From Escherichia coli (lineage in GTDB: Bacteria > Pseudomonadota > Gammaproteobacteria > Enterobacterales > Enterobacteriaceae): a stretch of DNA of 64,000 nucleotides. Position 1 is the stretch's first letter; each line of letters starts with the position of its first letter. Where the stretch lies: assembly GCF_024298765.1 (NCBI RefSeq), contig NZ_CP101210.1. One strand, given 5' to 3'. Below, in pieces: positions 11,588 through 42,330 of the stretch. Under the pieces are notes generated by a model. The model was given only the letters and a program-made list of their open reading frames with translations. It was not told the DNA's origin and searched no databases. A program made the position numbers and the translations under genes.

Positions 11588-12022
11588 TTATTTATGAATA
11601 TAATATAACTGAACATCATATTCATTATCACTTAAAACTATTAGTCGATCGGGAAATGTAAATGCTAATGAAAGATCATATGTTTCATTTATCGAAAACA
11701 AACTCAATATGAAATTTGAAAAATTTTCGACATGAAGAGATATGCAAACATCTCCATTATAGAATATATTGCAAAGAATATCTTTTTTCACATTCAGTGT
11801 ACTTTCAACATCTCTCGCTAGATCATTAATATTTAAAGGTAAATTGAAAACTCTCCTTTCAATAATATTATCGGTTTTATTTATTGCCATTAGCATTTCT
11901 CGATGCCACATGAAGTCATTCTTACGTAAGAATGATACATCAAAGGAAGTGACACCATTTAATTTAGAAGCATAATCTTTTGCTCTAATTAAATTTAATT
12001 TATCTTCAAGGCTAATTTTCAT
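11588..12022 (-). CDS. putative immunity protein of orphan Rhs C-terminal toxin
   Basis: 144 aa ORF starting 11 nt inside the 3' end of the toxin stub; position-based call only. Confidence 0.5.
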   Translation of the reverse strand: MKISLEDKLNLIRAKDYASKLNGVTSFDVSFLRKNDFMWHREMLMAINKTDNIIERRVFNLPLNINDLARDVESTLNVKKDILCNIFYNGDVCISLHVENFSNFILSLFSINETYDLSLAFTFPDRLIVLSDNEYDVQLYYIHK

Positions 12023-12470
12023 AATATATATGATGATCCTTAGTTACAGGGTCATTGATCTTCTGATATCTATCACTTTTGAAATCGTATGTTCTAGGAT
12101 CAGCGCCCGGTTTAGGTTGTCCTGCATGTGCGTGAGGGCCAGGTGCCCTAGGATCTGCCGTGTGCTCGACTACAACTTTCTTACGTCCGTAGGCATCTGT
12201 ATATTCATAATATCGCCCATGAGACCCTAAATCTTCCGAATATTTATAATTTGTTTGTCCCCTTCTTCTAGGATCATTTCCAACGGTCCATTGCCTATTA
12301 GGTTGCTGTGAACGAGGTATGCCCGCAAGATCTTTTGCTTTATTTAGTGCCTGACGACGGTTTCTTAATTCACCACATTTAAGACCAAGCGGATCTATCC
12401 AGCTTACTGGATTAGGCGCGTAAGCATATAAGTTTAGCCCCCCCGCCAGCCCTATCGGGTCGGGTTACGT
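12012..12470 (-). pseudogene. orphan rhs C-terminal stub: last ~25 core codons (..PIGLAGGLNLYAYAPNPVSWIDPLGL) plus ~125-aa toxin tip, no start codon
   Basis: Hand translation of minus strand; in-frame stop immediately upstream of the core remnant; absent from ORF track because it lacks a start. Confidence 0.6.
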
Positions 12471-12634
12471 AAATGTTCCACAGTCCGAGTCGTAGTACCT
12501 CAGAAGGTTGCAGTGCAATCCCGCCTTGCGACATCAAGGCATAGTTTCAGAAAAAGTAAGGAGCAATCACCATACCCCAATTCACTGGGTGCTAAATAAT
12601 ATCTGGTAACATCCCTTACTTCAATTCTATTTCA

Positions 12635-13030
12635 TTACAACTTCTTTACTTTCCATATTCTTTGCGCAGCTAAAAAAGATACTCCTTTGAACCAAGACGC
12701 ACATTCAATAACTTGTTCCCATGAATATATTTTATGTGAGCTAAATTTTATCGATTCATCTTGGTTCATTATCTCAATAAAATAATATCCTTTATTATAA
12801 TCTCTTTTTTCTATTCTATCTTCAGCTCTTGCCGAACGTATAGAAATAACACAATCATCTAATAAACAAAATCTTTTCTTTATAATCGCATCATCTTGGT
12901 TCCATGGATTTGTACTTGCCATTTGTTCTGATTGTTTCAGCTCATTCACTACTGTATACCAAATAGCTTCGGTATCACTTGCCTTTGCATTCTCTCTATC
13001 AGACTCGGATCTAAATATAATTTTGTCCAT
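12635..13030 (-). CDS. putative orphan immunity protein (cognate toxin replaced by ISAs1)
   Basis: 131 aa ORF; about 20 codons of an upstream ORF end in TAA overlapping its ATG (TAAAATG) just before the IS end. Confidence 0.4.
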   Translation of the reverse strand: MDKIIFRSESDRENAKASDTEAIWYTVVNELKQSEQMASTNPWNQDDAIIKKRFCLLDDCVISIRSARAEDRIEKRDYNKGYYFIEIMNQDESIKFSSHKIYSWEQVIECASWFKGVSFLAAQRIWKVKKL

Positions 13031-13086
13031 TTTAATAATCCAAATGTAAATTACTTAAAATACCCTCTGCCTCATTCCAGGCATTG

Positions 13087-14388
13087 ACATGGGAACCCAG
13101 GGAAAGATTACGAAAGCCCGCTCCCAGCAAGGACTGACGCCAGATAGTTTCTGTCCATGGCTGCTTTTCGCATCTTACGTCTTAACCCTGCCTTGAATAC
13201 CTTATCATTCGTCAAAATATTAATAGCGATGTGCCGTATCCCTGAAAATAATTCTGCTGCATTTCCTCTTCTTATTTTGCAGTCGTCTTCATTCATTACC
13301 ACGTCCAGACGCCAGTGCAGCTTATTCTCCACGTGCCAGTGGTTTCGGATTGCTGTGGCGAACTTCTCTGCGGTTAAATCAGCAGAACTGATATAATATC
13401 TGACCGTCATTTCTGGCTCTTTCTTTTGTTCTGCTATTATTGACCGAAAGGAGACTGCCACGCATAATTTCTTCAGACCTTTCCATTCAAACGTGAAATC
13501 AATAAGTTCATCAGGGACATCGCAAACAATATGAAGACGGATTTCTTCTCTGCCGTGACTTTTTTCACTAATTGCGTAACTGTCATGCTCTGGATTATTT
13601 AATTCTTTCAGTGGGAATTTTTCCTCAAAGGCTTTATTAAGCCGCCCCTGATTTCCTTTTACAGCGAATAAATAATCACCGCCCTGTTTTTGTATCTTCT
13701 CTGCGATATCTTTCTGGCACCCCATCGCATCAGTTGTGATAATTTTTCCTTTAATATCCAACATGTTAAGAAGTTCAGGGATAGCTGTGATCTCATTGGA
13801 TTTCTCATCCGTCCTGATCTGTCCGATGACCAGACTGTGCATTGTTGAGAACGCACTAATGACATGAATCGCTCCCCTGCGGCGACTCTTGTCATAAGAA
13901 TGCCGGAGCGTTTTTCCATCAATTGCAATAACGTCTTTATCATCTGAAGAATGGCAGTCACGCATCCAGTTAATAAAGCACTCGTGAAATTTTGCAGGAC
14001 TGATACAGGATACAACTCTGGCAATGGTATCGTGAACAGGAATACCATTTTCAAAATCACCATATTGCTTCAAAAAATCGAGATGTGTTTCCCCAAAATC
14101 CTCTATATCTTCCCAGCCTTCTGCACAAGAAATAACGGCACAAATAGTCAACAGTAGAATATCCGACAATTTATGTTCCACTTTCCAGGCTTGTCTGTAA
14201 TCGGGGATAATAGAAATATGTTCCATCAATTTTTTAAGTTCCATTTTGTTCTCCTTAATTATGTAAGGAGTATTTGACCATGTATACGCAATAAAAAACA
14301 GCTTCAGGTAATGAGGAATATCTCAATTTTTAAACATAAAATGCGAATTATTTAGTACAAAAAAGCAGCGTTACGTGATCTTTCCCTG
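13087..14388 (-). mobile_element. ISAs1-family insertion sequence (H-repeat), apparently intact
   Basis: About 1.3 kb; imperfect terminal inverted repeats; single 378-aa transposase ORF. Confidence 0.8.
13108..14244 (-). CDS. ISAs1-family transposase (H-repeat-associated protein)
   Basis: 378 aa, [32 protein letters not shown]..., matches Rhs-associated H-rpt proteins. Confidence 0.9.
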
Positions 14389-14395
14389 GTTAATC

Positions 14396-14725
14396 ATGGC
14401 TGAACACGATATTACGCCAGAAATCACCATTTCCAAAACACAGCGCCGCTATAAAGTCGGCTATGTCAGAGCCCGCCACATAAACAGCAAAACCTACATG
14501 ACCACGTACTACTCACGACACCCCAGCCTGAACCTCAAGGGCGACTGGCTGAAAGAGGCCGGATTTGATACCGGGCGGGGTGTCACGGTGAAGATTTCGG
14601 AGGGGTGCCTGACCATCATCGCTGACAGTGACGAGGTGCAGGAACTGCGGGAGGAACTTTATCAGGTTAAACAGGTGGTTAAGGGGATGCGGAGCGGGAT
14701 GTTTAGTGTGCTGAACGATAATTAA
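14396..14725 (+). CDS. SymE-family (type I toxin-like, AbrB-fold) protein
   Basis: 109 aa; LKGDWLKEAGFDTGRGVTVKISEGCLTIIA resembles the SymE core [30 protein letters not shown] (from memory); start trimmed from ORF 14375. Confidence 0.7.
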   Translation: MAEHDITPEITISKTQRRYKVGYVRARHINSKTYMTTYYSRHPSLNLKGDWLKEAGFDTGRGVTVKISEGCLTIIADSDEVQELREELYQVKQVVKGMRSGMFSVLNDN

Positions 14726-14727
14726 AT

Positions 14728-14772
14728 AATAAAAAGCCGGGAAGATTTAATTTTCTTTCCGGCTTTGTCTAA
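14728..14772. terminator. bidirectional hairpin terminator
   Basis: aagccgggaagatttaattttctttccggctt between convergent genes. Confidence 0.5.
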
Positions 14773-14776
14773 TTAA

Positions 14777-15145
14777 TTATTCAGGAAATTTTCTATTTTT
14801 ATATGATGACCATAAGTGAGTGATCGACCAAGAGTTTTCCTTTCCGAGTACAAAACTTTTGGAGATTATCTCAATATCATCAGATATACGCGAAGATATT
14901 TCAGAATTATTAATCACCCTGAATGAGTATTTAAATGCCTTTTCTCGCAAGGAATCAATAAACTCAATATCATCATCCTGAAAACTTTCCTTATCTAATG
15001 AATTAAACTCACTCATCCAGCAATCATCAAACTCCGGTTCATCTCTTGAGTCTAATGCACTATCAACATTTAATGATTTAAGAAAATCAAAAAATGACGG
15101 GGTGGATAAACAGTTATCAATTTCAATTAGCTTATTATTAATCAT
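14777..15145 (-). CDS. putative immunity protein of orphan Rhs toxin
   Basis: Acidic ~122 aa protein; ATG overlaps toxin stop in TGATG arrangement. Confidence 0.55.
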   Translation of the reverse strand: MINNKLIEIDNCLSTPSFFDFLKSLNVDSALDSRDEPEFDDCWMSEFNSLDKESFQDDDIEFIDSLREKAFKYSFRVINNSEISSRISDDIEIISKSFVLGKENSWSITHLWSSYKNRKFPE

Positions 15146-15790
15146 CACATTAACCCTTGTCCTTTGAGCCAAACCTCTATTAAATCAACAGCCTTGGATG
15201 GTGTCACATTAGTACCTAGCGTATAAGTTCCATTTGGAGATTTAACATCAACTCTGATGTCATCTAATTTTGAATACGCTTTTCTGTAAGCATCAAATAA
15301 CTCTTTATCCGAACCAAGGAAATCACCTTGTCTTGGACCTATCACATCTCGTTCCGCATGATGTAAACGCCAGTGATTATGTTCTGGATTTTCTCCTCTA
15401 GGGAATAATGTTGGGCGAGTTTTATCAGATCGGGAAACTTCAAACGGACGTCCTTTAGATTTACGAACCGCAGGAACATGATGTCCAGATTCACTCACGC
15501 CCATACACTTCTTCGTTAATCCAAGGGGATCGATCCAGCTTAACGGATTCGGTGCATAAGCATACAGGTTTAACCCGCCTCTTAGCCCTATCGGGTCCGT
15601 TACCATGAACCGCCCGACATCCGGATCATAGTACCTGTGCAGATTGTAATGCAGCCCCGTTTCCCTGTCGAGGTACTGTCCCTGGTAGCGCAGGTTCTGC
15701 TCCACCCCGCCGTGGTCCTTCTCCTGTATCGTGTTACCCCAGACCTGATACCCCGTCTCCCACACGATTTTCCCGTCACTGTCCGTCATC
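15145..15790 (-). pseudogene. orphan rhs C-terminal fragment: ~90 core codons + DPLGL + ~120-aa toxin tip with GHH signature
   Basis: ORF 15145..15825; core part near-identical to main rhs (MTDSDGKIVWETGYQVWGN...DPIGLRGGLNLYAYAPNPLSWIDPLGL); 5' end cut by ISAs1. Confidence 0.65.
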
Positions 15791-15792
15791 TC

Positions 15793-17084
15793 CAGGGCAA
15801 GATTACGAAAGCCCGCACCCCGCAAGGACTGACGCCAGATAGTTTCTGTCCATGGCTGCTTTTCGCATCTTACGTCTTAACCCTGCCTTGAATACCTTAT
15901 CATTCGTCAAAATATTAATAGCGATGTGCCGTATCCCTGAAAATAATTCTGCTGCATTTCCTCTTCTTATTTTGCAGTCGTCTTCATTCATTACCACGTC
16001 CAGACGCCAGTGCAGCTTATTCTCCACGTGCCAGTGATTTCGGATCGCTGTGGCGAACTTTTCTGCGGTTAAATCAGCAGAACTGATATAATATCTGACC
16101 GTCATTTCTGGCTCTTTCTTTTGTTCTGCTATTATGGACCGAAAGGAGACTGCCACGCATAATTTCTTCAGTCCTTTCCATTCAAACGTGAAATCAATAA
16201 GTTCATCAGGGACATCACAAACAATATGAAGACGGGTTTCTTCTCTGCCGTGACTCTTTTCACTAATTGAGTAACTGTCGTGCTCTGGATTATTTAATTC
16301 TTTCAGCGGAAATTTTTCCTCAAAGGCTTTATTAAGCCGCCACCTGATTTCCTTTTACAGCGAATAAATAATCACCTCCCTGTTTTTGTATCTTCTCTGC
16401 AATATCTTTCTGGCAACTCATCGCATCAGTTGTGATGATTTTTCCTTTAATATCCAGCATGTTAAGAAGTTCAGGGATAGCTGTAATTTCATTGGATTTC
16501 TCATCCGTCCTGATCTGTCCGATGACCAGACTGTGCATTGTTGAGAACGCACTAATGACATGAATCGCTCCCCTGCGGCGACTCTTGTCATAAGAATGCC
16601 GGAGCGTTTTTCCATCAATTGCAATAACGTCTTTATCATCTGAAGAATGGCAGTCACGCATCCAGTTAATAAAGCACTCGTGAAATTTTGCAGGACTGAT
16701 ACAGGATACAACTCTGGCAATGGTATCGTGAACAGGAATACCATTTTCAAAATCACCATATTGCTTCAAAAAATCGAGATGTGTTTCCCCAAAATCCTCT
16801 ATATCTTCCCAGCCTTCTGCACCAGAAATAACGGCACAAATAGTCAACAGTAGAATATCCGACAATTTATGTTCCACTTTCCAGGCTTGTCTGTAATCGG
16901 GGACAATAGAAATATGTTCCATCAATTTTTTAAGTTCCATTTTGTTCTCCTTAATTATGTAAGGAGTATTTGATCATGTATAAGCAATAAAAAACAGCTT
17001 TAGGTAATGAGGAATATCTCAAATCTTAAACATAAAATGCCAATTATTTAGTACAAAAAAGTAGCGTTACGTGATCTTTCCCTA
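15793..17084 (-). mobile_element. ISAs1-family copy, transposase frameshifted
   Basis: Same ends as the copy at 13087..14388; ORF split into 16332..16940 and 15803..16156; 1-bp difference (gccgccacctgattt vs gccgcccctgattt). Confidence 0.75.
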
Positions 17085-38497: not shown

Positions 38498-38509
38498 TAA
38501 AGCAAAGTA

Positions 38510-38543
38510 AAAAAGGGCGATTGAATGGTCGCCCTTTCTGTTT
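38510..38543. terminator. rho-independent terminator after potE
   Basis: aaaaagggcgattgaatggtcgccctttctgttt. Confidence 0.6.
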
Positions 38544-38574
38544 GTTGACAAAGAGTTCTTTATTTATGCCGCAT

Positions 38575-38723
38575 CCGGCAGGTGTAGGATCCAAACGCGG
38601 TCGGACACAGCAACTATTTGCGTAATTATATGAGGCATTTGCGACAAAAACTGGAACAGGATCTCGCCCGCCCCGCCATTTCATTACTGAAACCAGTATT
38701 GGGTATCGGTTTATGCTTTGAAA
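38575..38723 (+). pseudogene. duplicated 3' end of kdpE (about 150 bp fragment; resembles what I recall as ybfI in K-12)
   Basis: Strong nucleotide similarity to 34240-34390 including the stop codon context. Confidence 0.7.
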
Positions 38724-38844
38724 AAAGTGGCATTGTATGGATAAAGTCATTTTTTATTCACATATAAGGAACTTAATATTTAAAAAATGTCCCATACAAT
38801 GCCTCATCATAAATGACACCGTAGCATACAAGGAGCAAGTAGCG

Positions 38845-39239
38845 ATGCGTGATTGGACACAACGCCCTGAATTCGCAAGCGTGCGGGCTTTACCCATCGC
38901 CGATGATGTCGCAGGGGGAATTTTCTTAATGGTGGCGATCTTGGGGAAGATACTGGCTGCGTTTATTATTTTGCGCCAGATACGCTGATTTGGGAAAGTC
39001 TGGAGGTTGGATATTCTGAGTTTCTTCAGTGGGCATTATCCGGTGATTTAGATACCTTCAATGAAAATGTACGCTGGCCGCAATGGCAAGAAGACGTAAT
39101 AAAATTATCGGCAACGGAAGCCTTCACTTTCTACCCTTTCTTATGGGTACAAAGTGAAGAAGCAAGAACAAGAAAAGTTATTTCGCTTACTGAACTCTGG
39201 GAAATGCAGTATCAAATGAAAGAAACATTCACGCAATAA
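38845..39239 (+). pseudogene. frameshifted ORF (ybfG-like)
   Basis: Two consecutive frames (MRDWTQRPEFASVRALPIADD... then ...WESLEVGYSEFLQWALSGDLDTF...) with no intact long ORF. Confidence 0.45.
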
Positions 39240-39279
39240 GACATGTTCAGGTCCGGGTTTCATTCCTGGACTCGCTATT

Positions 39280-39774
39280 TTAATGTGTATTTATCGCTTT
39301 CAATTCTTGCTGGCAATTTTCTGACTGGCAGCGTCGCAACTCAATAATCCCGACATGCATCATCGAGCCAATAAAGCCGCTTTCGCTGACATAATCCTCA
39401 TTAACTATCGGTCGAGTGCCGGGCTTGCCCTGGCAAACCTGCATAAAAAATGAGGTGTAGCATTGCCAACCAGGATTTAAACCGGCCTTTTCTTGTGCTG
39501 ACATATCGTGAAGATAAGTAAGTTCTTTTTCGTTCCCGCCTGACAACTGCCAGCGGCGGGTATTATCAGGTAAGTTATCGCCACGGCAATTTGTCTTACA
39601 CCGGGAAAGCGCAATATTTACCGCAATGCTCCCCGTTAATCCTCTGGTTTTATCTTTAGGGGTCAGTAACCAGTCACCAGCTAATGATGATTGTTCAGGT
39701 TGGGCGCATGCTGTCAGCAGTAGTGTGGCGGTAATTAATGTCACTCTGACGACCAGACTCCTTTTGGTCTTCAT
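39280..39774 (-). CDS. ybfP: lipoprotein
   Basis: 164 aa from MKTKRSLVVRVTLITATLLLTAC (lipobox LTAC) within ORF 39280..39825. Confidence 0.75.
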   Translation of the reverse strand: MKTKRSLVVRVTLITATLLLTACAQPEQSSLAGDWLLTPKDKTRGLTGSIAVNIALSRCKTNCRGDNLPDNTRRWQLSGGNEKELTYLHDMSAQEKAGLNPGWQCYTSFFMQVCQGKPGTRPIVNEDYVSESGFIGSMMHVGIIELRRCQSENCQQELKAINTH

Positions 39775-39825
39775 TTTGAATTCCCTTGAGCTATTCAGTT
39801 TGTTGGCAAAGTGCTCGTTGTTCAT

Positions 39826-39990
39826 GCCGGATGCGGCGTGAACGCCTTATCCGGCCTACAAAATCGCGTAAATTCAATATATTGCACCATCTTCCCAGGC
39901 CTGATAAGCGTAGCGCATCAGGCAGTCATAAGTAATAAATATCCTCCGGCATAGCCGGAGGTTTTTCAAATGCGCCTATAAGGCTCTCTT
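39826..39990. repeat. REP (repetitive extragenic palindromic) cluster
   Basis: gccggatgcggcgtgaacgccttatccggcctac and related palindromic units. Confidence 0.6.
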
Positions 39991-40645
39991 ACCAGCCGCG
40001 CCCTAACAGGCGCACACGATCTGACATTTGCATCCAACTTCGTTACTTACGGCCCGTAAACGGGCTGCCCGGATAGGGAATCGATAACTGCTCTCCCATT
40101 TTATCCTCTTCAAGCTGGTGCTTTATGTAATCCTGTATCTTCGCCGTGTTCTTACCCACCGTATCGACGTAGTACCCTCTGCACCAGAACTCTCTGTTCC
40201 TGTATTTGAATTTCAAATCACCAAACTGCTCGTAAAGCATCAGACTGCTTTTCCCTTTCAGATATCCCATAAAGCCGGATACACTCATTTTGGGCGGGAT
40301 CTCCACAAGCATATGGATATGATCTGCACAGCATTCAGCTTCAAGAATCCGTACGCTTTTCCACTCACACAGCTTTCTCAAAATACTGCCTATTGCTCTA
40401 CGCTTCTCTCTGTAGAACACTTGTCTTCGGTATTTTGGCGCAAAAACTATGTGATATTTACAGTTCCATCGGGTGTGCGCTAAGCTCTTTTCGTTCCCCA
40501 TTGGGACCCCCTTTTGATTTCTTGTTTGACACTTGCAGTTGCCAGACCGCAAGGTGTTTTAACAAATCAAAAGGGGTTTTAATAACTGGCTCAAAGCTGA
40601 AAGCTTTCCGGAACCCCCAGCCTAGCTGGGGGTTTTCTGTGCACA
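39990..40645 (-). mobile_element. IS200-family insertion sequence (ends approximate)
   Basis: Contains IS200 tnpA; upstream perfect hairpin aacccccagcctagctgggggtt typical of the IS200 5' region; ends not determined precisely. Confidence 0.65.
40043..40501 (-). CDS. tnpA: IS200 transposase TnpA (HUH/Y1 family)
   Basis: 152 aa from MGNEKSLAHTRWNCKYHIVFAPKYRR..., HIHMLVEIPP HUH motif and ...YYVDTVG... tyrosine region. Confidence 0.9.
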   Translation of the reverse strand: MGNEKSLAHTRWNCKYHIVFAPKYRRQVFYREKRRAIGSILRKLCEWKSVRILEAECCADHIHMLVEIPPKMSVSGFMGYLKGKSSLMLYEQFGDLKFKYRNREFWCRGYYVDTVGKNTAKIQDYIKHQLEEDKMGEQLSIPYPGSPFTGRK

Positions 40646-40649
40646 AAAA

Positions 40650-40683
40650 AGGGCGATCTTCCGACCGCCCTTTTTCTTATTAA
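40650..40683. terminator. rho-independent terminator of pgm
   Basis: aaaaagggcgatcttccgaccgccctttttctt. Confidence 0.6.
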
Positions 40684-40689
40684 ATGTGT

Positions 40690-42330
40690 TTACGCGTTTT
40701 TCAGAACTTCGCTAACAATCTCAACCGCTTCTTTCTCAATTTGCTTGCGATGTTCTTCCCCGAGGAAGCTTTCGCAATAAATCTTGTACGCGTCTTCCGT
40801 GCCTGACGGACGCGCGGCGAACCAGCCGTTGTCAGTCATCACTTTCAGACCGCCAATAGAAGCACCGTTGCCCGGAGCAGCAGTCAGGCGTGCGGTGATC
40901 GGGTCACCTGCCAGGGTGCTGGCGCTCACCATTTCCGGAGACAGTTTAGACAGCGCCGCTTTTTGTGCGGAAGTCGCGGCTGCCTGCAAACGGTTGTAGC
41001 TCGGCGCACCAAAGCGTTTTGCCAGTTCGTTGTAGTGTTCCTGCGGATTCTTACCGGTAACAGCGGTGATTTCCGCCGCCAGCAGACACATAATGATGCC
41101 GTCTTTATCGGTGGACCACGGCGTGCCGTCGAAACGCAGGAAGGAAGCCCCTGCGCTCTCTTCGCCGCCAAAGCCGAAGCTGCCGTCGAACAGACCATCA
41201 ACAAACCATTTGAAACCTACCGGGACTTCTACCAGCTTACGGCCCAAGTCATTGACCACACGGTCGATCATCGCAGATGAAACCAGCGTTTTACCGACAG
41301 CAACATCTTTGCCCCACTGCGGACGGTGCTGGAACAGGTAGTTGATCGCCACCGCCAGGTAGTGGTTCGGATTCATCAAACCTGCCGGAGTGACGATACC
41401 GTGACGGTCATAATCCGGGTCGTTAGCAAACGCCAGATCGAACTTATCACGCAGTGCCAGCAGGCCCGCCATCGCACACTCGGAGGAGCAGTCCATACGG
41501 ATCGCACCGTCTTTATCTAGGTGCATAAAGCGGAAGGTTTGATCGACCTGATCGTTAACGATGGTCAGGTTGAGGTTGTAATACTCGCCAATACGCTTCC
41601 AGTATTCGATACCAGAACCGCCCAGCGGATCGACACCCAGCGTCAGGCCCGCTTTCTGAATCGCTGCCATATCAACGATATCGGCCAGCCCTTCCACGAA
41701 CGGCTGCACCAGATCCTGCTCTTTCACATGACCGGATGCCATCGCTTCGTCGAGGGAGATACGCTTCACGCCTTTCAGGCCATCAGCCATCAGTGCGTTG
41801 GCCCTGTCTTCCACCACTTTAGTGACGTTGGTATCAGCCGGGCCACCATTTGGCGGATTGTACTTGATACCACCATCTTCCGGCGGGTTATGAGACGGTG
41901 TAATCACGATACCGTCTGCCAGCGGGCCACCTTTTTTATTGTGAACCAGAATGGCATTGGAAATGGCAGGTGTCGGAGTGAAGCCATTGTTTTCCTGCAC
42001 AATGATATCAACACCGTTCGCTGCCAGCACTTCCAGTACGGAAATGAACGCAGGCTCGGACAGGGCGTGAGTATCTTTACCCACATAGCAAGGGCCAGTG
42101 ATGCCGTTTTTCGCACGTTCTTCAGCAATTGCCTGAGCGATCGCCAGAATGTGCGGCTCGTTAAAGCTGTGGCGCGCTGCACTGCCACGGTGACCGGAAG
42201 TACCGAATTTCACCGCGTGCTCCGCATTCCCTGCTTCTGGTTTCAGTACATAATATTGCGCCGTCAGTTGGGCGACGTTAATCAAATCACTCTGTTGTGC
42301 AGGTTGGCCTGCACGATTGTGGATTGCCAT
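40690..42330 (-). CDS. pgm: phosphoglucomutase
   Basis: 546 aa from [16 protein letters not shown] within ORF 40690..42381; TSGHRG-type phosphoserine motif present. Confidence 0.95.

Follow-up and report, generated by a model that had tools for sequence, protein, structure and literature searches.

The insert of 711 bp that separates pgm from ybfP in the analysed window, a stretch of 64,000 nucleotides of Escherichia coli DNA (NCBI RefSeq assembly GCF_024298765.1, contig NZ_CP101210.1), is an ordinary intact copy of IS200C, a member of the IS200 group of the IS200/IS605 family. Its position on the tail of the pgm intrinsic terminator is typical, as the IS200 group sits on the tails of terminator-shaped hairpins as a rule. 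The joint explanation, in which an IS200C element inserted once and cleanly at the pgm terminator, the terminator tail was the target and the resulting copy is nearly silent, is very probably the best one. The element and its association with terminators are already known, and the target rule TTNTT described below is not claimed as new.

The element occupies positions 39934-40644 on the minus strand, position 40644 being its left end and 39934 its right end, and chance is no explanation for it. Both limits were fixed by comparison with five other E. coli copies, since the sequence common to all of them extends from GTGCACAG to ATATTTATT and diverges immediately outside. The identity to other E. 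coli IS200C copies is 96-100%, and the RefSeq label on the identical sequence of strain 104 reads 'IS200/IS605-like element IS200C family transposase'. No inverted repeat is formed between the tips GTGCACAG and ATATTTATT, which can be read directly from the sequence. The sequence-only reading had drawn the insertion as 39826-40645, an extent which does contain the IS, but the element proper is confined to 39934-40644 and the stretch 39826-39924 is a separate BIME.

The only ORF in the 711 bp is tnpA (40043-40501, minus strand), encoding a Y1 HUH transposase of 152 aa that was identified by Pfam, by homologues in the PDB and by its RefSeq entry, as the protein is identical to the widespread WP_000526135.1 (IS200C family). 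The ORF matched the Pfam profile PF01797 Y1_Tnp ('Transposase IS200 like') with an E value of 3.8e-38 over 119 of the 121 profile positions, and it also matched solved IS200-family transposases, among them those of Sulfolobus (2EC2, 4e-23), IS608 (2A6M, 4e-19) and ISDra2 (2XM3, 2e-16). The HUH motif (DHIH) and the region of the catalytic Tyr (RGYYV) align with 2EC2 and 2F4F, both from Sulfolobus.

The noncoding parts of the element are equally characteristic. Upstream of the tnpA ORF, a 124-nt match to the full model of Rfam STnc490, the RNA of the IS200 left end and 5'UTR, was found at 40511-40634 (minus strand); it scores 146.4 bits, the gathering score of the model being 56. This match lies on the tnpA strand; the papers cited here place art200 antisense to the 5'UTR. 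The left end carries a perfect hairpin, AACCCCCAGC-TAG-GCTGGGGGTT (40612-40634, minus strand; inverted repeat I7, 10 bp, 100% complementary), with a folding energy of -18.7 kcal/mol, which is presumed to be bound by the transposase by analogy with IS608. It is followed by the 5'UTR stem-loop that masks the Shine-Dalgarno sequence of tnpA (40508-40576, minus strand; inverted repeat I1), in the region of the art200/STnc490 antisense RNA, with a fold of -32.1 kcal/mol (z = -5.6). At the other end, the subterminal hairpin CCTCCGGC-TAT-GCCGGAGG (39943-39961, minus strand; inverted repeat I5) is followed by ATATTTATT to the right-end tip; it gave a terminator-like match on both strands and folds with -15.9 kcal/mol (z = -4.5). 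Between the tnpA stop codon and this hairpin lies an internal inverted repeat (I6, 39971-40014, minus strand) with 13-nt arms that are 85% complementary. The agreement of Pfam, Rfam STnc490 and folding bears out the recognition, from the letters alone, of an intact IS200 tnpA with its characteristic hairpins, and the element shows every character of the IS200 group that was checked, namely the Y1 HUH enzyme, hairpin ends, absence of a target duplication, the target, the architecture and the presence of multiple copies.

The gene upstream of the insertion is pgm, encoding phosphoglucomutase (40690-42330, minus strand), which is co-oriented with tnpA, and the downstream neighbour is a homologue of the lipoprotein gene ybfP (39280-39774, minus strand; b0689 in K-12), both assigned from RefSeq annotation and K-12. 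The gene names given by the sequence-only reading were right, as the order seqA-pgm-ybfP-ybfG-ybfI-potE-speF is the same in K-12 MG1655. The pgm intrinsic terminator (40645-40675, minus strand; inverted repeat I3) is composed of the hairpin GGGCGGTC-GGAA-GATCGCCC and a run of six T residues (T6, 40645-40650), and folds with -21.8 kcal/mol (z = -5.6). On the element strand the junction reads AAAAAGGGCGGTCGGAAGATCGCCCTTTTTT|GTGCACAG, so that the left end of the element is the base directly after the T6 run, 45 nt past the pgm stop codon; the placement just downstream of the pgm terminator, already suggested before this analysis, is thus exact.

Beyond the right end, across 9 nt, lies the BIME (39826-39924), consisting of two inverted REPs (REP-1, 39826-39859; REP-2, 39895-39924; inverted repeats I2 and I4) joined by a linker of 35 nt. 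We take REP-1 to be of the Y type and REP-2 to be an inverted Z type. The Rfam models naRNA4, which is REP-derived (38 bits against a threshold of 59.5), and ES036 matched this stretch below threshold. Queries including it matched at least 40 places per genome in 5,425 of 5,426 E. coli genomes, and 39826-39924 has the features by which REP and BIME sequences are recognized, being an inverted pair of imperfect palindromes of about 30-35 nt with a linker, extragenic and highly repeated. The BIME holds the same position in empty sites, and it is host repeat DNA older than the insertion and outside the element. REPs do adjoin the IS, as had been noticed, but there are only two of them rather than several, and both are outside the IS.

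Removal of 39934-40644 from the window gave exactly the junction GGCAGTCATAAGT^AAAAAAGGGCG that is found in strains NY1601 and ST648. This exact match to natural empty sites demonstrates a clean insertion without target duplication and without loss of host bases. The pgm terminator, hairpin and T6 run alike, is present unchanged at the empty sites, so it is owned by the host and was left intact by the insertion. The definition of the ends and the comparison with empty sites, both of which had been proposed as checks, thereby gave an element of 711 bp and exact empty sites in NY1601 and ST648. Two apparent irregularities at empty sites were dismissed. In a MAFFT alignment with the empty site of MRE162, an 11-bp change (ATTCTGTGTTT) appeared to be tied to the insertion, but the gap was misplaced; it is an independent polymorphism, as the empty sites of ST648, strain 135 and NY1601 also lack those 11 bp. 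Likewise, a span of 916 bp in NY1601 that could have been taken for a partial insert arose because another piece containing a REP had been joined on, while at the junction no element is present.

The filled site was detected in 73 of 5,426 complete E. coli genomes, leaving about 99% without the element at this place. Among the matches listed, 40 of 40 filled sites spanned the 600 bp of flanking sequence plus the 711 bp, with flanks 99.8% identical to those of the window, which fits one ancestral insertion in one minor E. coli lineage, many isolates of which are from birds or poultry. The simulated empty site gave a collinear match at a single place in about 2,150 genomes when a query of 320 bp was used; joined flanks of 600 bp had ranked only filled sites at the top. 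In K-12, pgm and ybfP lie 213 bp apart, which leaves no room for the element, and the site is empty. The suspicion that the insertion is strain-specific and absent from K-12 was therefore well founded, and its presence in all E. coli genomes, which would have spoken against it, was not seen among the 5,426. IS200C-like sequence as such is common, with 10,906 places in 3,097 E. coli genomes and near-complete copies in 2,056. The number of places per genome has a median of 2 and a maximum of 35, strain 104 having 9, and the loci are distinct.

The association with terminators is evident at every annotated E. coli site. Besides pgm, five further loci were obtained as the best IS matches in other E. 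coli genomes, giving six distinct annotated IS200C sites: pgm, aroG, kdsA (found twice), ydcL, creD and tkt. In each of the six, the left end is bordered directly by the hairpin and T-run belonging to an upstream gene that is co-oriented with tnpA. The claim of co-orientation applies to these six annotated sites only. On unannotated loci, an ORF-based assessment gave 71 on the same strand versus 52 on the opposite strand, of 104, a count with which antisense shadow ORFs interfere.

A wider survey was carried out with the exact 23-nt left-end hairpin in one genome per prokaryotic species, yielding at least 120 loci with 118 unique full-length left flanks. The flanks came from Yersinia pestis (IS1541), Vibrio, Brenneria, Dickeya, Mailhella, Oxalobacter and several metagenome-assembled genomes, and the sample is skewed, as 54 of the 118 are from a single Y. 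pestis assembly and 17 belong to one left-end class, mostly from Vibrio ruber. A T-rich tail was present in 116 of the 118 listed IS200 flanks compared with 8.6% of random positions, the control sites with a T-run followed by G having been selected for it. By a crude test a hairpin was found in 96 of 118, versus 26.4% at random positions and 17% at T-run-then-G sites. Hairpin and T-rich tail together were found in at least 95 of 118 listed flanks, versus 1.8% and 17%, respectively, and 95 is a lower bound, since most of the 23 failures are visibly hairpins missed by the distance rule; roughly 95-110 of the 118 listed flanks thus place the left end directly after a GC-rich hairpin and a T-rich run. 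The mean folding energy of the flanks was -17.5 kcal/mol at the IS200 sites, in comparison with -7.6 at random positions and -6.1 at T-run controls, some of which lie in coding DNA, where an insertion would not persist.

For the 116 flanks with a defined boundary, T occurs at positions -5, -4, -2 and -1 with frequencies of 97%, 86%, 99% and 100%, the value at -1 being partly imposed by the setting of the boundary, and the consensus is TTNTT, as it is over the six E. coli sites. The commonest pentanucleotides are TTTTT (61), TTATT (19) and TTGTT (12), the pgm site bearing TTTTT, and positions -12 to -8 are rich in G/C. When left-end variants were compared for covariation of guide and target, one variant had C at position -3 in 5 of 13 flanks versus 2 of 54 in IS1541, a difference that host composition could explain. 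The terminator hairpin is not a part of the element, since each site has a different one and empty sites have it too. In tandem copies of Yersinia, a left end comes directly after the right end of the preceding copy, which finishes with GGAGGATATTTATT.

The neighbourhood of the BIME raises the question of whether the site was chosen for its REP palindromes, a link that the sequence-only reading had drawn. A BIME with two REPs does lie 9 nt from the right end of the IS and REPs are documented as targets of several other IS elements and resemble the subterminal hairpins of the IS200/IS605 family (PMC3333891); IS1397 and ISKpn1 or some IS110-family elements choose their sites in this way. The insertion point, however, is neither in a REP nor at its foot, but at the terminator T-run across the 9-nt spacer. 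No REP stands beside either end of the IS at the five other E. coli IS200C sites, a terminator borders the left end at all six, and none of the 118 listed flanks from other genera needs a REP. BIMEs commonly follow the 3' ends of transcription units, so a BIME beside a terminator is expected in any case. With the BIME also present at empty sites, the link to the REP cluster did not hold and insertion guided by REPs can be given almost no credence. Assignment of the element to the class of REP-targeting IS fell on the same grounds, namely an insertion 9 nt outside REP-2 and the lack of REPs at the five other E. coli sites. A REPtron (RAYT) was rejected as well, because the REPs lie on one side only and occur at empty sites without the gene, and because the gene is multi-copy and bounded by IS200 hairpins.

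Two further explanations concern the fate of the copy. Survivorship as the sole cause, in which insertion takes place at any exposed T-rich pentanucleotide and only harmless, silent copies behind terminators persist, is rather unlikely, though it has substance: an IS200 inside hisD is known (PMC4513863), the control T-run sites include coding DNA, and insertions behind a terminator are the least harmful. Against it stands the fixed place of the left end relative to the hairpin, with G/C-rich positions -12 to -8 and T at -5 in 97% of flanks, a placement that recurs across very different hosts and is tighter than 'somewhere harmless' needs; moreover, the tandem copies follow the right-end hairpin and T-rich tail of another copy, which have the same shape but are not host terminators. 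Domestication of the insert, which would be kept for art200 or tnpA-5'UTR small RNAs or as an extra terminator or insulator between pgm and ybfP, appears very improbable. RNAs derived from the IS200 5'UTR do regulate Salmonella genes (PMC5435999), with the element a strong bidirectional hairpin comes to lie between two co-oriented genes, and all 73 genomes with these flanks have kept the copy; persistence in one clonal lineage, however, does not call for selection, mobile copies elsewhere, at up to 35 places per genome, share 96-100% identity with this one, the site is unoccupied in about 99% of E. coli genomes, and no site-specific change of the sequence was seen. A single clean insertion of an ordinary IS200C at the tail of the pgm terminator remains the preferred explanation of the locus.

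How the terminator tail might be found by the transposase can be approached from the better-studied members of the family, where TnpA binds subterminal hairpins at the ends of its own element, cuts out the top strand in the form of a single-stranded circle and integrates it 3' of an element-specific target of 4-5 nt in single-stranded DNA, preferentially on the lagging-strand template (PMC5027513). IS200C would likewise move as a single-stranded circle by 'peel and paste', as judged from IS608 and ISDra2. The single insertion between the last T of the pgm terminator and the next base left both the terminator and the BIME unaltered. The target of the IS200 group is TTNTT just 3' of a GC-rich hairpin, in other words the tail of an intrinsic terminator, an association for which we infer the following cause.

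The sequences at which cleavage would occur are T-rich at both ends (TTTTT in the left flank, TTATT at the tip of the right end), and GAAAA(A) stands immediately 5' of both subterminal hairpins (GAAAAA at the right-end hairpin). These A-rich GAAAA stretches may act as guide sequences that pair with the T-rich cleavage sites, in analogy to IS608. The left tip and the target together form the near-palindrome TTTTTTGTGCACAGAAAA (I8), which along with GAAAAA lends support to the guide idea and resembles the pairing of guide and cleavage site in IS608. A single-stranded terminator would also mimic the right end of the element, where a hairpin is followed by ATATTTATT, so the transposase could engage it, and the tandem arrangement in Yersinia is consistent with such right-end mimicry.

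The orientation of the insertion was also considered. pgm is on the plus strand of K-12 at 0.71 Mb, tnpA is co-oriented with it, and pgm is co-directional with replication on the K-12 map; the net GC skew of the window is negative on the plus strand, which lends weak support over 64 kb. Co-orientation with pgm and the direction of replication place the top strand of the element on the lagging-strand template, in agreement with the preference of the family (PMC5027513). It is quite possible, though put forward here with reserve, that IS200-group transposases select their targets by structure together with sequence, a terminator hairpin plus TTNTT in single-stranded DNA mimicking the right end, and in this way seek out the 3' ends of transcription units. 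The hisD984::IS200 allele of Salmonella indicates that insertion elsewhere can take place (PMC4513863). The earlier suggestion that IS200-family elements target hairpin-forming DNA is upheld for the IS200 group as an association with hairpin-bearing targets, but it is not the usual description of the family (PMC5027513).

In comparison with known systems, IS200(C) from Salmonella and E. coli as well as IS1541 from Yersinia are of the same size class (711 bp here and 707 bp for Salmonella IS200) and have a single tnpA of 152 aa; the left-end terminator hairpin, the 5'UTR stem-loop and the right-end hairpin of IS200/IS1541 all match, and no target duplication occurs in either. From the IS200C group there is no difference of substance, the present element being one more copy at a lineage-specific site. 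IS608 from Helicobacter pylori and ISDra2 from Deinococcus radiodurans possess homologous Y1 HUH enzymes and subterminal hairpins at both ends, and they share with IS200C a left end 3' of a 4-5 nt target and the absence of a duplication; an orientation according to the lagging-strand template fits as well. Different from these two, IS200C has no tnpB, its target is TTNTT instead of TTAC or TTGAT, its left-flank target and right-end tip resemble each other, and a host hairpin stands before its target in nearly every case, for which no requirement is described in IS608 or ISDra2.

REPtrons (TnpA-REP, RAYT) likewise feature a Y1 transposase relative near REPs, but they are single-copy, fixed and surrounded by REPs on both sides, in contrast to IS200C with its canonical TnpA, non-REP end hairpins and multiple mobile copies. 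IS1397, ISKpn1 and ISPpu9/ISPpu10 are likewise site-specific at extragenic DNA that forms hairpins; they use IS3 or IS110 transposases and insert inside REPs, whereas IS200C is placed after the T-run of a unique host terminator. A preprint of 2025-26 described sequences resembling terminators upstream of IS elements, most strongly for IS200/IS605, and interpreted them as limiting transposase expression (10.1101/2025.07.22.666184). Neither the rule of hairpin plus TTNTT nor a mechanism for it was found in the accessible literature, which excludes the older IS200/IS1541 papers and ISfinder/TnPedia.

The consequences for expression at this site can be anticipated from Salmonella IS200, the left-end hairpin of which is a bidirectional terminator that blocks incoming transcription (PMC4513863) and reportedly stops about 85% of incoming transcripts (PMC5435999), while the 5'UTR stem-loop, art200 as an antisense RNA and Hfq block the translation of tnpA (PMC4513863). 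In the window, tnpA is located behind two tandem terminators, that of pgm and its own left-end hairpin. With two terminators and a buried ribosome-binding site, the copy is expected to be almost silent and its insertion nearly neutral; the IS200C insertion is probably neutral for both pgm and ybfP.

For the window itself the insertion matters little, other than as a mark of one E. coli lineage. The placement at a terminator followed by TTNTT is useful for the annotation of IS200 ends, the prediction of insertion hot spots and the reading of IS200 fingerprints, and it offers a simple reason why IS200 should be both tolerated and nearly silent. An enzymatic preference would provide a natural example of structure-guided integration into single-stranded DNA. 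Terminators would then be a genome-wide 'safe harbour' read by a Y1 transposase, which would help to explain both the harmlessness and the dormancy of IS200.

The near-palindrome TTTTTTGTGCACAGAAAA (window 40633-40650, minus strand) spans the junction between the IS200 left end and its target, and within it the AGAAAA immediately 5' of the left-end hairpin is complementary to the target T-run. A GAAAAA stretch stands in the corresponding place, just 5' of the right-end hairpin. The A-rich stretches 5' of both hairpins and the T-rich sites are candidate guide/cleavage-site pairs. On the tnpA-sense strand, the Rfam STnc490 model matches window 40511-40634, opposite to the published art200/STnc490 RNA, which is described as antisense to the tnpA 5'UTR (PMC4513863); this mismatch may come down to how the Rfam model is oriented.

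Between REP-2 and the pgm terminator, an 11-bp indel, ATTCTGTGTTT, falls at window 39924/39925. The sequence is present in E. coli MRE162 (L001 1825-1835) and absent from the window and from ST648, strain 135 and NY1601, all four comparison strains having the empty site, and this distribution shows that the indel is unrelated to the IS200 insertion. The gene content between potE and pgm was also variable across E. coli when window 38500-39830 was compared with two other loci: pgm directly adjoins potE in O157:H7 E32511 (L003), ybfP, ybfG and ybfI being absent from the interval, and the ybfP homologue adjoins kdpE in NY1601 (L005). The ybfG-like (DUF2625) and ybfI-like genes of the window's strain are annotated as frameshifted pseudogenes. 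Elsewhere, window 12001-16000 has a G+C content of 0.41 versus ~0.51 in the rest of the window, with a strongly negative GC skew.

Fragments of IS200 are present on E. coli plasmids (matches H56-H69 to the IS200 query). The pO157-type plasmids of ~92 kb carry the first ~141 nt of the query, corresponding to the right-end part of the element, and plasmids of 134-195 kb carry query nt 375-717, the left-end half, adjoining IS1.

Among the matches listed (L013-L075) from a scan of one genome per prokaryotic species, the exact 23-nt left-end hairpin was also found in assemblies labelled Bacillota, Mailhella/Desulfovibrio, Oxalobacter, Saccharibacteria, Elusimicrobiaceae and Peptococcaceae, and Vibrio ruber has at least 13 copies among those listed; many of the matches lie at contig ends. 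The breadth of this range comes either from very extensive horizontal dissemination of a strongly conserved end or from artefacts of MAG binning or contamination.

In Yersinia pestis NCTC5923, copies of IS1541, the Yersinia member of the IS200 group, occur in tandem (L078, L079, L081, L095 and L125), the right-end tip of one copy, ending in GGAGGATATTTATT, being followed directly by the left end of another. Since a left end is set directly after the right-end tip of another copy, the right end shares the shape of a hairpin with a T-rich tail with the host targets.
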